NCBI GenBank assembly: GCA_021683455.1
Contig: GCA_021683455.1_3051.1
Direction: 5' to 3' (one strand)
Source: a phage
DNA: 64,000 nucleotides
The notes beneath the pieces were generated by a model, which saw nothing but the letters and a program-made list of their open reading frames with translations, was not told the origin of the DNA and made no database searches. The position numbers and the translations under genes were made by a program. Below are positions 44,752 to 48,889 of the stretch, in pieces (the first letter of the stretch is position 1; the number at the start of each line of letters is the position of its first letter).

Positions 44752-47700
44752 ATGGCTACTTTAAAACAAATACAATTTAAAAGAAGCAAAACGGCAGGTC
44801 AACGTCCAGCTGCTTCAGTATTAGCCGAAGGTGAATTGGCTATAAACTTAAAAGACCGTGTACTTTTTACTAAAGATGATCAGGGAAATATTATTGATTT
44901 AGGTTTTGCTAAAGGCGGTAGTATTGACGGGAATGTTATTCATAAAGGCAATTATAACCAAACTGGTGATTATACTTTAAACGGTACATTCACCCAGACT
45001 GGTAATTTTAATTTAACCGGTATTGCTCGAGTAACTCGTGATATTATTGCTGCTGGGCAGATTATGACTGAAGGCGGAGAACTTATTACAAAAAGTTCAG
45101 GAACGGCACACGTTCGTTTTCATGATTCCGCCGACCGTGAACGCGGTATTATTTTTTCTCCTGCTAATGACGGTTTAACTACACAAGTAATTAACATCAG
45201 AGTTCAAGATTACAAAGCCGGTTCAGAAAGCACTTTCGCTTTTAATGGAAATGGTTTGTTTTCTTCACCAGAAGTTTTTGGGTGGAAATCTGTATCAACT
45301 CCGGTAATTTATACCAATAAAGTTATCACCAATAAAAAAGTTAAAGATGATTATGACATCTATTCGATGGCAGACAATGTTCCATTGTCTGAAAGCACTA
45401 CTGCTATTAATCATCTTCGTGTTATGCGTAATGCAGTTGGTTCTGGTATTTTCCATGAAGTTAAAGATAATGATGGAATAACATGGTATAGTGGAGATGG
45501 ATTAGACGCTTATCTTTGGTCATTTACTTGGAGCGGCGGAATTAAATCAAGTCACTCAATTTCCATCGGTTTAACACCCGGACCTAAGGATTACTCAATA
45601 TTAGGACCGTCTAGTATCGCTTTAGGAGATAATGATACTGGATTTAAATGGCATCAAGACGGATATTATTTCAGTGTTAACAATGGCACAAAAACGTTTT
45701 TATTTAGTCCCAGCGAAACAACTAGCCTAAGAAAATTTATAGCTGGATATTCTACTAACGGAACCGATTTAACTACTCCTCCAACTGAAAATTATGCTCT
45801 TGCTACTGTAGTGACATACCATGATAATAACGCGTTTGGGGATGGTCAGACTCTTTTAGGATATTATCAAGGCGGTAACTATCATCATTATTTCCGCGGC
45901 AAGGGCACTACAAACATTAATACTCATGGCGGTTTGTTAGTTACTCCAGGCAATATTGACGTTATTGGTGGTTCTGTTAATATCGATGGTAGAAATAATA
46001 ATTCAACTTTAATGTTTAAAGGCTATACCATGGGTCAAAGCTCCGTTGATAACATGTATATAGCTGTTTGGGGAAATACTTTTACTAATCCAAGTGAAGG
46101 CACCCGTAAAAATGTCATGGAAATTTCTGATGATATTGGATGGATGCATTATATTCAACGTAATAAAGATAATACGGTTGAAGCCGTGTTAAATGGTCAA
46201 CAAACAATTAATGAAAATATTATTGCGAAAAAGGATATTTGGGTTGACCGAGCAGTTCATACCATTGGCGAAATCACTACAAATGCTGTTAATGGTCTTC
46301 GTATTTGGAACAATGATTACGGAGTTATTTTTAGACGCTCAGAAGAAAGTCTTCATATTATTCCTACAGCATTTGGCGAAGGAGAAACCGGTGATATTGG
46401 GCCTTTACGTCCTCTCAGCGTAGCTTTAAATTCCGGTAAAGTTACTATTCCAGATTTACAGTCAAGTTATAATACGTTCGCTGCAAATGGTTATATTAAA
46501 TTTGCTGGTCATGGGGCTGGTGCCGGTGGTTATGATATTCAGTATTCACAAGCTGCTCCTATTTTCCAAGAAATCGATGATGCTGCTGTAAGCAAATATT
46601 ATCCTATTGTTAAACAGAAGTTTTTAAACGGTAAAGCCGTTTGGTCTTTAGGTACTGAAATTAATTCTGGTACATTTGTTTTACATCATTTGAAAGAAGA
46701 TGGTTCACAAGGCCATACATCAAGATTTAATGCTGATGGTACAGTTAATTTCCCCGATAACGTTCAAGTTGGCGGCGGTGAAGCTACTATTGCTCGTAAT
46801 GGTAATATTTTCTCAGATATTTGGAAATCGTTTACTTCTGCGGGAGAAACCACAAATATTCGCGATGCAATAGCTACTCGTGTTTCTAAAGAAGGCGACA
46901 CGATGACTGGTAAATTGACTTTATCGGCAGGCAATGATGCTCTCATTTTAACTGCGGGCGAAGGTGCTTCATCACATATCCGTAGTGATGTAGGTGGTAC
47001 AGGTAACTGGTATATAGGCAAAGGCGGCGGCGACAATGGTCTAGGTTTTTATAGTTACATTACACAAGGCGGTGTATACATAACAAATAACGGCGAAATA
47101 TCGCTTTCTCCTCAAGGTCAAGGAACATTTAATTTTAATAGAGACCGCCTTCATATAAACGGTACACAATGGGTTGCGCACCAAGCTGGTGATTGGGGAA
47201 ACCAATGGCGACAAGAAGCGCCAATATTTGTAGATTTTGGCAATGTCGGTAATGATAGTTATTACCCGATTATCAAAGGAAAATCTGGTATTACTAATGA
47301 AGGATACATATCGGGTGTTGATTTTGGTATGCGACGCACTACTAACCAATGGGCTCAGGCTATTATCCGTGTTGGTAACCAGGAAAATGGTTCTGACCCA
47401 CAAGCTATCTATGAATTTCACCACAATGGAGTTCTGTATGCTCCTAATATGGTTCAAGCTGGAGCAAGATTATCAGCTGGTGGAGGTGATCCGGTATGGC
47501 AAGGCGCATGCGTTGTTATTGGTGATAATGATACTGGATTAGTTCATGGCGGTGATGGACGAATTAACATGGTTGCAAATGGAGTGCATATTGCTTCATG
47601 GTCTTCATCCCATCATGAACACACTGGGCTTTGGGCCACCGACGGCGCGTTTTGGACAGAAGTTGGCAAAGCAATTGTTTCTCATGGCCATTTAGTTCAG

Positions 47701-48081
47701 GCGAATGACAGCTATTCAACGTATGTCCGCGATGTTTATGTCCGCTCTGATATTCGTGTTAAAAAGGACCTAGTTAAATTTGAAAATGCTTCTGAGAAGC
47801 TTTCAAAAATTAATGGTTACACTTATATGCAGAAGCGAGGCCTAGATGAAGAAGGTAATCAGAAATGGGAACCAAACGCTGGGTTAATTGCTCAAGAAGT
47901 TCAAGCTATTTTACCTGAATTAGTTGAAGGCGATCAGGATGGTGAAGCTTTACTTCGTTTGAACTATAACGGTGTAATTGGTTTAAATACAGCTGCAATC
48001 AATGAGCATACTGCAGAAATTGCAGAACTTAAGTCAGAGATTGAAGAGCTTAAAAAATTAGTTAAATCATTGTTAAAATAA
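44752..48081 (+). CDS. 37: Long tail fiber distal subunit gp37 with C-terminal chaperone-like domain
   Basis: 1109-aa ORF; C-terminus [32 protein letters not shown] resembles the endosialidase-type auto-cleaving chaperone domain (from memory). Confidence 0.85.
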
Positions 48082-48086
48082 AATGA

Positions 48087-48100
48087 GGGGCTTCGGCCCC
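48087..48100. terminator. Stem-loop GGGGC-UUCG-GCCCC between 37 and 38
   Basis: 5-bp GC stem with UUCG tetraloop just upstream of SD GGAGG. Confidence 0.5.
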
Positions 48101-48112
48101 TTGGAGGTTTAT

Positions 48113-48889
48113 ATGGCAGTTGAAGGACCGTGGGTAGGATCGTCTGCAGTAGTTAATACAGGACAAAATTGGATGGGCGGCGCGGCCCAACGATTAAGAA
48201 TGGGCATTCCGTTCTGGATGAGTAATATGATAGGTCGATCTGTTGAAGTAATTCACACGCTTGGAGCAGACCATAACTTCAATGGTCAATGGTTCCGAGA
48301 TAGATGTTTTGAGGCAGGTAGTGCACCTATAGTGTTTAATATCACTGGAGATTTAGTATCATATTCTAGAGACGTTCCTTTATTCTTCATGTACGGAGAT
48401 ACACCGAATGAATATGTTCAATTGAATATACACGGCGTAACGATGTATGGTCGCGGCGGGAATGGTTGGGCTGCTGGAGCGATTGGAGCGTCTGACGGTG
48501 GTGTATGTATCCAAAATGATATAGGTGGACGCCTACGAATTAATAATGGGGGAGCTATTGCTGGAGGCGGCGGCGGTGGCGGTGGATATTCGCAAGCCAA
48601 TAACTGGGCAGGAAAATATGTATGTGGAGGCGGCGGTGGTCGTCCATTTGGTTTAGGCGGAAATAATGGTGCTCGATGGCCTGGTGGAAATGCTAGCTTA
48701 ACAGCACCTGGTGCTGGTGGTAATACTGGCCAATATTGGGCTGGCGGTGGAGGTGAAGTTGGTCAACCAGGTCAATATGCTAATCCAGGTAATGGTTATT
48801 CAACACCTCCGACAAATCCTGGTGCTGCTGTAGCAGGATCGGCTCCAACATGGCAAAACGTTGGAGCCGTATACGGTTCAAGAGTATAA
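48113..48889 (+). CDS. 38: Tail fiber adhesin gp38 (T2-type, glycine-rich motifs)
   Basis: Gly runs [11 protein letters not shown] and [13 protein letters not shown]; ATG 48113 preferred over track start 48083, which lies inside the hairpin. Confidence 0.8.

Follow-up and report, generated by a model that had tools for sequence, protein, structure and literature searches.

Computational dissection of a T2-type distal tail-fibre module: gp37 with a C-terminal chaperone domain and the glycine-rich adhesin gp38

The subject of this study is a pair of adjacent plus-strand genes, 37 and 38, occupying positions 44752-48889 (4138 bases) of a stretch of phage DNA of 64,000 nucleotides (nt; contig GCA_021683455.1_3051.1, hereafter the window, in whose numbering all positions are given). 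We hold with high confidence that these genes form the module for receptor recognition at the distal fibre end in a T-even phage of T2 type (Tequatrovirus, PP01/AR1-like lineage), in which a chaperone at the end of the fibre protein gp37 would cut itself off and expose a docking site for gp38, the adhesin that would bind the receptor. The architecture of the module, its protein families, the conservation of a Ser/Lys dyad in gp37 and of three tryptophans in gp38, the pattern of glycine motifs and variable loops, the near-identity to crystallised proteins and the contrast with T4 were all obtained directly by computation. The module as such is already known, being a textbook T2-type arrangement with solved homologue structures and near-identical deposited genomes: the arrangement dates from 1986-87 and the S74 chaperone mechanism from 2007-2010; a structure of the tip complex has been available since 2018 (6F45), and since 2026 (9V85) also that of an adhesin domain 97% identical to the present one, together with its mapping onto OmpC. 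The module sets which bacteria the phage adsorbs to, hence its relevance for phage therapy and for biocontrol of Escherichia coli O157:H7. Coordinates of all features are collected in Table 1.

The C-terminal chaperone of gp37

Searching gp37 against Pfam placed the family Peptidase_S74 (PF13884, 'Chaperone of endosialidase') on residues 999-1058 with 49.5 bits (E = 5.4e-13, profile positions 1-57 of 58), the curated cut-off being 22 bits. The chaperone domain as a whole makes up the last 111 of the 1109 residues, at the extreme C-terminus of the protein. An earlier note on this DNA had given gp37 a length of 1109 amino acids (aa) and had read its end as a chaperone-like segment closed by a coiled coil. 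The length proved exact, and the strings quoted in the note are present, SDIRVKKDL starting at residue 999 (codon 47746-47748) with GLIAQEVQ after it. The chaperone-like character was upheld by the Peptidase_S74 score, by homology to S16 gp37 in 6F45 and by an alignment to MYRF (both below), and the coiled coil is real at the level of sequence, with a single a/d heptad register running over residues 1076-1107 (I1076, N1079, I1083, H1086, I1090, L1093, I1097, L1100, V1104 and L1107; 8 of the 10 hydrophobic).

Residues 918-1109 match the gp37 chain of the Salmonella phage S16 (6F45_A, E = 2.9e-45), and DVYVR^SDIRVKK of the window aligns residue for residue with the S16 cleavage site DLNVS^SDRRIKK. 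As described in PMC7917993, citing Dunne et al. 2018, the last 113 residues of S16 gp37 constitute an intramolecular chaperone, which is autocleaved between the two serines of that site, and the cleavage exposes the docking surface for gp38; that the S16 gp37 tip carries gp38 is likewise stated in PMC6851490 and PMC7917993. The same combination of tip, S74 chaperone and gp38 thus recurs in S16 (PDB 6F45; Dunne et al. 2018) and in the window.

The dyad with +5 spacing at the DVYVR/SDIRVKK junction consists of S999 and K1004 (47761-47763). When the C-terminal 129 residues of gp37 were used as a query, the MYRF autocleavage domain (7DC3) gave a weak match (E = 0.012), in the register of which S999 falls on the mutated catalytic serine and K1004 on the catalytic lysine. 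MYRF S587/K592 corresponds to endoNF S911/K916, the catalytic dyad, with the same +5 spacing, and the C-terminal triple coiled coil of the MYRF domain drives trimerisation (PMC8326128). The endosialidase endoNF itself (PDB 3GW6) was not retrieved by phmmer with these 129 residues, and the similarity of the window protein to endoNF and MYRF is at family level only. Features common to this Peptidase_S74 family, the MYRF ICA domain included, are the position at the end of a trimeric beta-helix, the Ser-Lys(+5) dyad, the terminal triple coiled coil and self-release; unlike in the endosialidase, the predicted cleavage in the window protein would additionally make the docking site for gp38.

Conservation of the segment is high. 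The pattern R-S-D-x-R-x-K could be read in 13 of 14 related IMG/VR loci, the remaining one (L007) being frameshifted across the site, and the S999...K1004 spacing is kept in S16, in MYRF, in a locus identical to T2 (L015) and in 13/13 readable loci. Compared with PP01, identity is 100% over residues 1001-1050 and 98% over 1051-1100. The ratio of non-synonymous to synonymous substitution rates (dN/dS) amounted to 0.04-0.07 in the chaperone segment versus 0.13-0.19 in the remainder of gp37; such a low value is what one would expect of a functional folding domain, although this one would be discarded after use. Values obtained against IMG/VR locus L013 (40% identity, ungapped alignment) were disregarded as saturated or misaligned. 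Autocleavage between R998 and S999 is predicted to turn the precursor into a mature gp37 of 998 aa (107.9 kDa) and a fragment of 111 aa (12.4 kDa).

Two HxH motifs were seen in the gp37 tip, HHEH at residues 955-958 (47614-47625) and HGH at 978-980 (47683-47691). The former lies within a 12-residue tip insertion that has no counterpart in S16 gp37, and its site is variable, reading YHSH in KMB42 and YHLH in PP01 and AR1. In T4, HxH motifs of the gp37 tip coordinate iron.

The gp38 adhesin and its receptor loops

As called mechanically, the open reading frame (ORF) of gene 38 (48083..48889) starts at the first in-frame ATG, at 48083, and encodes 268 aa. In all annotated relatives (KMB42, AR1 and PP01) the gene starts at the position equivalent to ATG 48113, which in the window follows a GGAGG Shine-Dalgarno sequence. 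The resulting protein matches two Pfam families, GP38 (PF05268; E = 3.6e-72, 243 bits) over residues 45-258 with the full profile 1-218, and Gp38_N (PF21721; E = 4e-21, 75 bits) over residues 1-40 with profile positions 1-40, as well as PHROG 2056 ('tail fiber protein; host specificity'; E = 1.5e-108). NCBIfam returned no match for gp37 or gp38. Among structures, gp38 matches PDB 9V85, the PP01 receptor-binding domain fused to green fluorescent protein (E = 2.6e-138), and its residues 1-256 match S16 gp38 (6F45_D, E = 1.6e-53).

Conservation was assessed in an alignment of 15 adhesins, with T2, S16, PP01 and nine IMG/VR relatives among them. The tryptophans W7, W20 and W35 in the attachment domain at the N-terminus are invariant in 15/15 sequences, including S16 and T2; in S16 gp38, according to PMC6851490, three conserved tryptophans insert into three equivalent pockets of the gp37 tip. 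Glycine accounts for 23.6% of gp38 overall and for 32% of residues 110-258, where it forms the runs G151-158 (G8), G172-176 and G211-214, in addition to eight GG pairs in the protein. Mean column conservation was 0.73-0.96 in the glycine-rich motifs as opposed to 0.30-0.49 in the five loops, the limits of which (A to E) were taken from the PP01 structure (PMC12892980).

Henning's group and Trojet et al. 2011 (PMC3157838) described gp38 as just such an alternation of conserved motifs and hypervariable segments, and it has been seen structurally as a polyglycine-II sandwich (PMC6851490, PMC12892980). S16 gp38 likewise has three N-domain tryptophans, a G8 run and a polyglycine-II sandwich with five loops; it is, however, more distant from the window protein than PP01 gp38, all of its loops differ, and the receptor of S16 is the OmpC of its Salmonella host. 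The earlier note had described gp38 as a glycine-rich adhesin of about 258 aa with poly-Gly runs flanking variable segments: the start at 48113 with its ribosome-binding site bears out the length, the two Pfam families and the structures 9V85 and 6F45_D bear out the adhesin, and the conservation values show the flanking pattern to be quantitatively true.

The raised G+C content over the window interval 48000-48999, which covers gene 38 (0.43-0.47 versus 0.36-0.38 in the neighbouring fibre genes), is due to the GGN codons of glycine. An antisense ORF of 60 aa at 48418-48600, containing PPPPPPPP, was rejected as a gene, as it is the mirror of the glycine run.

By its sequence the window derives from the genome of a Tequatrovirus (T-even phage), with a stretch of 25 kb that is 96-98% identical to KMB42, ECML-363, Ec_O157kw, G157lw and CAM-21. 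Across the whole module DNA identity to KMB42 reached 98.1% (98.5% at the protein level for gp37), identity to the deposited Tequatrovirus genomes Ec_O157kw and G157lw was, as with KMB42, 98%, and a total of 120 database records cover at least 80% of its 4138 bases. The closest relatives of the window have O157:H7 or Shiga toxin-producing E. coli (STEC) as isolation hosts; that of KMB42 is described solely as E. coli KL6. PP01 (Tequatrovirus pp01) belongs to the same group, together with AR1, KMB42, Ec_O157kw, G157lw and CAM-21, and shares gene order, gene lengths (gp37 of 1109 aa) and an intercistronic hairpin. Identity of PP01 gp38 to that of the window is 95% for the whole protein and about 97% for its receptor-binding domain, while PP01 gp37 is 84.7% identical, in a mosaic fashion (54-100% per 50-residue block). 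The gp38 proteins of G4507, Ec_O157kw, CAM-21, G157lw and KMB42 are 99.2-99.6% identical to the window protein.

PP01 gp38 binds O157 OmpC via loops D and E and crosslinks to OmpC loops 5 and 7 (PMC12892980). In detail, G208 of loop D crosslinks to OmpC loop 5 and its deletion is tolerated, whereas loop E inserts in the cleft between OmpC loops 5 and 7; at its tip, A228D abolishes infection and deletion is lethal, but hydrophobic residues are tolerated (PMC12892980). Over residues 41-258 the window protein departs from PP01 at six positions (S199A, T207Q, G208 lost, Y210W, A228N and I254V in PP01 numbering), and a further eight substitutions fall in the N-terminal attachment domain, at residues 4-19. 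W209 (48737-48739), next to loop D, thus stands in place of PP01 Y210, and the essential Y209 of PP01 is still present, as Y208. The loop-E asparagine is common to KMB42, Ec_O157kw, G157lw, CAM-21 and G4507, the same variant occurring in at least five deposited phages. From these sequences the loop-D/E variant is evidently in circulation, with several of its carriers infecting O157. Taking together the PP01 crosslinks, the identity to PP01 apart from six differences and the O157:H7 or STEC hosts of the relatives, the receptor is most probably O157-type OmpC.

The T2-type arrangement, the proposed mechanism and its alternatives

The T2 and T4 loci were scanned with the same profile library as the window. 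T2 gp37 was found to carry Peptidase_S74 at residues 1243-1300 and T2 gp38 to match GP38 and Gp38_N, whereas in T4 the matches of gp37 were to Collar and Phage_fiber, with none to S74, and gp38 had no match in the library. Conversely, window gp37 gave no Collar or Phage_fiber match in Pfam, and a BLASTP comparison of window gp38 with T4 gp38 gave nothing even at E = 10, all of which agrees with the earlier designation of the module as T2-type and different from T4. The map position is the same in T4 (gene 38 between genes 37 and t), and an intergenic UUCG hairpin is common to both, but homology of T4 gp37 is limited to window residues 1-646 (34% identity). Window gp37 has two HxH motifs versus eight in T4 gp37, and of the seven in the T4 needle region it lacks six; the C-terminus of T4 gp37 consists of a Collar domain and an HxH needle that itself binds the receptor, and T4 gp38 is an unrelated assembly factor of 183 aa.

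T2, the archetype described by Riede, Drexler and Henning in 1986-87, has the S74-ended gp37, the GP38/Gp38_N-type gp38, the same operon layout and the UUCG hairpin. Its gp37 is longer (1341 aa) and 34% identical to that of the window, and its gp38 is 50% identical and of a different N-terminal subtype. Drexler et al. are said to have reported in 1986, to judge from the title of their paper, that T2 gp37 is proteolytically processed during fibre morphogenesis. PP01 gp38 is non-functional on T2 gp37 unless its N-terminal 113 residues are swapped.

The sequence of events that we propose would begin with late expression of genes 36, 37 and 38, probably from one transcript. The 1109-aa gp37 precursor would trimerise through the coiled coil of its 111-residue S74 chaperone, which would nucleate folding of the trimeric beta-helical fibre. 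Once the tip had folded, Ser999/Lys1004 would cut the R998-S999 bond and the 12 kDa chaperone would depart, baring a flat hydrophobic end made of three copies of ...DVYVR. A single gp38 molecule would then dock there by means of the three-helix domain at its N-terminus, whose W7, W20 and W35 would fit into three equivalent pockets, one to each. The remainder of gp38, a predicted small beta-helix followed by a polyglycine-II sandwich, would hold the five variable loops outward by means of its glycine-rich motifs, and the loops would bind the outer-membrane receptor of the host, most probably O157-type OmpC.

Several points weigh against this scheme. What is proposed on cleavage, on gp38 being part of the virion and on the receptor is transferred from S16, T2 and PP01. 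The single-sequence AlphaFold2 model of gp37 residues 960-1109 was poor, with a mean predicted local distance difference test score of 57.9; the same low-confidence model has a single long helix across residues 1062-1108. At the tip of loop E, Asn227 takes the place of PP01 Ala228, a position at which the hydrophilic A228D is lethal in PP01, and the changes in loops D and E could alter the fine OmpC-allele specificity relative to PP01. No contradiction of the scheme was found in the sequence.

An alternative that leaves the architecture intact is that changes in loops D and E have directed gp38 to another receptor, be it a different OmpC allele, OmpA, OmpF, Tsx, FadL or a component of lipopolysaccharide. 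In its favour, T207Q, the loss of G208, Y210W and A228N all fall in or next to the OmpC-contacting loops, at one of these positions the substitution A228D abolishes PP01 infection (PMC12892980), and at another the selection of PP01 lines for faster adsorption yielded T207I (PMC6027323); receptor switches through gp38 loop changes have occurred in Ox2 and K3 (reviewed in PMC12892980), and the variant carrier KMB42 was isolated on a strain known just as KL6. We nevertheless regard a different receptor as unlikely, given that loops A, B and C are identical to those of PP01 and the scaffold is identical or nearly so, that PP01 tolerates deletion of G208 and its critical Tyr209 is retained, that asparagine is uncharged while the lethal aspartate is charged, and that Ec_O157kw, G157lw and CAM-21, which carry the same N227 and Q207, were isolated on O157:H7 or STEC.

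Two further alternatives concern the roles of the proteins. The S74-like segment might be a trimerisation tag that does not cleave and remains attached to the fibre, with gp38 binding elsewhere or transiently. Cleavage in this phage is indeed extrapolated from homologues, and other families are known to include non-processing relatives of autoproteolytic domains; against this, the Ser/Lys(+5) dyad is intact and invariant in S16, in T2-like sequences and in the 13 readable loci, the segment is under strong purifying selection and almost identical in PP01, the S16 homologue, according to PMC7917993, is autocleaved and carries gp38 on the new C-terminus, and T2 gp37, going by the title of Drexler et al. 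1986, is processed proteolytically. We consider such a tag very improbable. Less credible still, and close to dismissed, is a gp38 that acts as an assembly chaperone outside the virion in the manner of T4, leaving the gp37 tip itself to bind the receptor. The location of gene 38 between 37 and t, as in T4, would fit that role. However, T4 gp38 matches neither of the two Pfam families and has no similarity to window gp38 at E = 10, the alignment of gp37 to its T4 counterpart stops at residue 646, without the Collar domain, the Phage_fiber needle or six of its seven HxH motifs, and the near-identical PP01 gp38 crosslinks directly to OmpC, with infection abolished by a deletion of g38.

Mosaicism, putative transcript signals and neighbouring genes

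In 14/14 IMG/VR loci with a Gp38_N-type gene, this gene is located 29-37 nt downstream of a gp37 gene with a homologous chaperone end; the gap is 31 nt in the window, and the arrangement is the same in T2, PP01, AR1 and KMB42. Given this constancy, the pairing of chaperone and adhesin behaves as a unit. In locus L007 (IMGVR_UViG_2974741249_000001), upstream of position 5001, the gp37 frame is broken in the chaperone part, leaving an open frame of just 128 aa that includes out-of-frame residues; either the sequencing or the assembly is at fault, or the fibre gene is defective. Four loci on T4-like contigs (L016-L019, matching around positions 5001-5132) encode gp38-like proteins of 175 aa that share with gp38 only a 44-residue N-terminal attachment domain and its tryptophans; their C-terminal part is unrelated and not glycine-rich, and gp37 upstream of them has an RSDRRxK chaperone. 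Judged by sequence, these proteins are the same docking adaptor joined to a different receptor-binding head, and they probably correspond to PHROG 1121.

Mosaicism through recombination, as seen here, is usual for the distal fibre locus of T-even phages. Comparison with KMB42 in 200-nt bins yielded 100% identity in all bins of 45952-47351 and 48352-48951, whereas between them, over 800 nt (47352-48151), identity falls to 84-95%. This patch takes in the tip of gp37, starting near residue 868, as well as the chaperone and the opening codons of gene 38, and is closest to JY01 and Sf23 (96.9-97.5%); in comparisons with PP01 and AR1 the divergent gp37 blocks are other ones. The pattern points to a local recombination that swapped the gp37/gp38 docking region and left the gp38 receptor loops unchanged. 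Self-BLASTP of gp37 revealed no internal repeats, and direct DNA repeats were all short (24 nt at most), so no long repeat accounts for the gp37 deletions of 579-686 bp reported in evolved PP01 (PMC6027323).

It is conceivable, although we would sooner doubt than assert it, that the gp38 variant (T207Q, G208 loss, Y210W and A228N) shifts or broadens the range of OmpC alleles or strains recognised, and that the docking patch was exchanged independently of gp38. If so, the published PP01-OmpC docking model, in which a hydrophilic loop-E tip is predicted to do harm, would find a natural test in the variant, and the docking interface would be exchanged as a recombination unit of its own. Being found in several O157-infecting isolates, the variant is in any case a possible, modestly useful check on the model of the PP01-OmpC interaction.

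Table 1 Features of the module and its surroundings (all on the plus strand, window numbering)
Feature	Position	Strand	Evidence or remark
Late promoter motif of T4 type (TATAAATA), 23 nt upstream of gene 36	44056..44063	+	exact match
Gene 36, distal hinge connector joining gp37 N-terminus	44087..44743	+	Pfam Phage_T4_gp36, E 1.8e-28; PHROG 1425
Gene 37, long tail fibre distal subunit precursor, 1109 aa, 120.3 kDa	44752..48081	+	ORF; PHROG 1699 ('long tail fiber distal subunit') end to end, 1331 bits
gp37 418-567, domain common to gp34 C-terminal trimerisation region	46003..46452	+	Pfam Gp34_trimer, E 9.8e-07
gp37 918-998, distal beta-helical tip ending DVYVR998 (predicted mature C-terminus, gp38 docking face)	47503..47745	+	aligns to 6F45_A residues 25-~92
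gp37 999-1109, C-terminal intramolecular chaperone (Peptidase_S74)	47746..48078	+	Pfam PF13884
gp37 1076-1109, a/d heptad (coiled-coil) helix	47977..48078	+	heptad register
Intercistronic hairpin GAGGGGC-UUCG-GCCCCUU, eight-pair stem	48084..48103	+	between gene 37 stop (48079-48081) and gene 38 Shine-Dalgarno
Gene 38 Shine-Dalgarno GGAGG, 5 nt before ATG 48113	48103..48107	+	sequence
Gene 38, monomeric tail-fibre tip adhesin, 258 aa	48113..48889	+	Pfam GP38 and Gp38_N; PHROG 2056; PDB 9V85 and 6F45_D
gp38 1-40, N-terminal attachment domain (W7, W20, W35), predicted to plug onto trimeric gp37 tip	48113..48232	+	Gp38_N
gp38 113-258, polyglycine-II sandwich and conserved C-terminal strand; G151-158 at 48563-48586	48449..48886	+	Gly runs; (near-)identity to PP01 domain (PMC12892980)
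Receptor loop A, W119-I124	48467..48484	+	conservation 0.30
Receptor loop B, Q161-V170	48593..48622	+	conservation 0.33; identical to PP01
Receptor loop C, N184-W189	48662..48679	+	conservation 0.38
Receptor loop D, N204-Y208	48722..48736	+	versus PP01: T207Q, G208 lost
Receptor loop E, N224-S230; tip N227 (PP01 A228)	48782..48802	+	alignment to PP01

Every relative (T2, T4 and the IMG/VR loci) retains the 37/38 intercistronic hairpin, with compensatory changes in the stem, which reads GAGGGC/GCCCTC in T2, GGGCC/GGCCC in L013 and TGGGGC/GCCCCA in L016; in L012 the loop differs. The hairpin may act in mRNA stability or in translational control, or it may mark a recombination junction. T4 carries a UUCG hairpin too, though its flanking coding sequences are unrelated. 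Tuerk et al. reportedly described UUCG hairpins in T4 intercistronic regions in 1988. A scan of the whole window at Rfam gathering thresholds identified no family, and the 37/38 hairpin accordingly matches none. A second UUCG hairpin with a T-run (GAGGGAGCC-TTCG-GGTTCCCTT TTTCTTT) was noted directly 3' of gene 35 (44028-44063), where it adjoins the TATAAATA motif at 44056.

That motif is likely the start of the g36-g37-g38 late transcript, an assignment based on its position directly 5' of gene 36 and on established knowledge of T4 late promoters; across the window the motif occurs 10 times versus 9.3 expected, i.e. not above chance. Another copy was found at 38989, 5' of gene 34, and only the copies before genes 34 and 36 are suggestive. 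A sigma-70 scan of 43900-49700 was uninformative (20 sites versus 19.9 expected), and a tRNA scan of the window found none.

The module lies within a run of plus-strand ORFs at 39031-42900 (1289 aa), 42909-44024 (371 aa), 44087-44743 (218 aa), 44752-48081 (1109 aa), 48083-48889 (268 aa) and 48922-49578 (218 aa). Pfam and PHROGs identified those from 42909 to 49578 as gp35, gp36, gp37, gp38 and holin T, in that order. The first, at 39031-42900, is gp34: the syntenic gene of KMB42 bears the annotation 'long tail fibre proximal subunit', and the gp34 chain 9x3r_M in PDB has the same length as window gp34, 1289 residues. At its other end gp37 is 90-92% identical to T2 and T4 gp37 over residues 1-50, and its internal domain at 418-567 also matches gp34 structures (4UXE/5NXF, E about 1e-16) and residues 950-1101 of the window's own gp34 (34% identity, E = 1e-15 in BLASTP). 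Residues 58-127 of gp35 (42909-44024) match the Pfam family ILEI (PF15711, 'Interleukin-like EMT inducer') with 31.1 bits (E = 3.4e-07; cut-off 27), which we take to be the 'GG domain' common to T4 gp35 and animal FAM3/POMGnT1, probably a known link.

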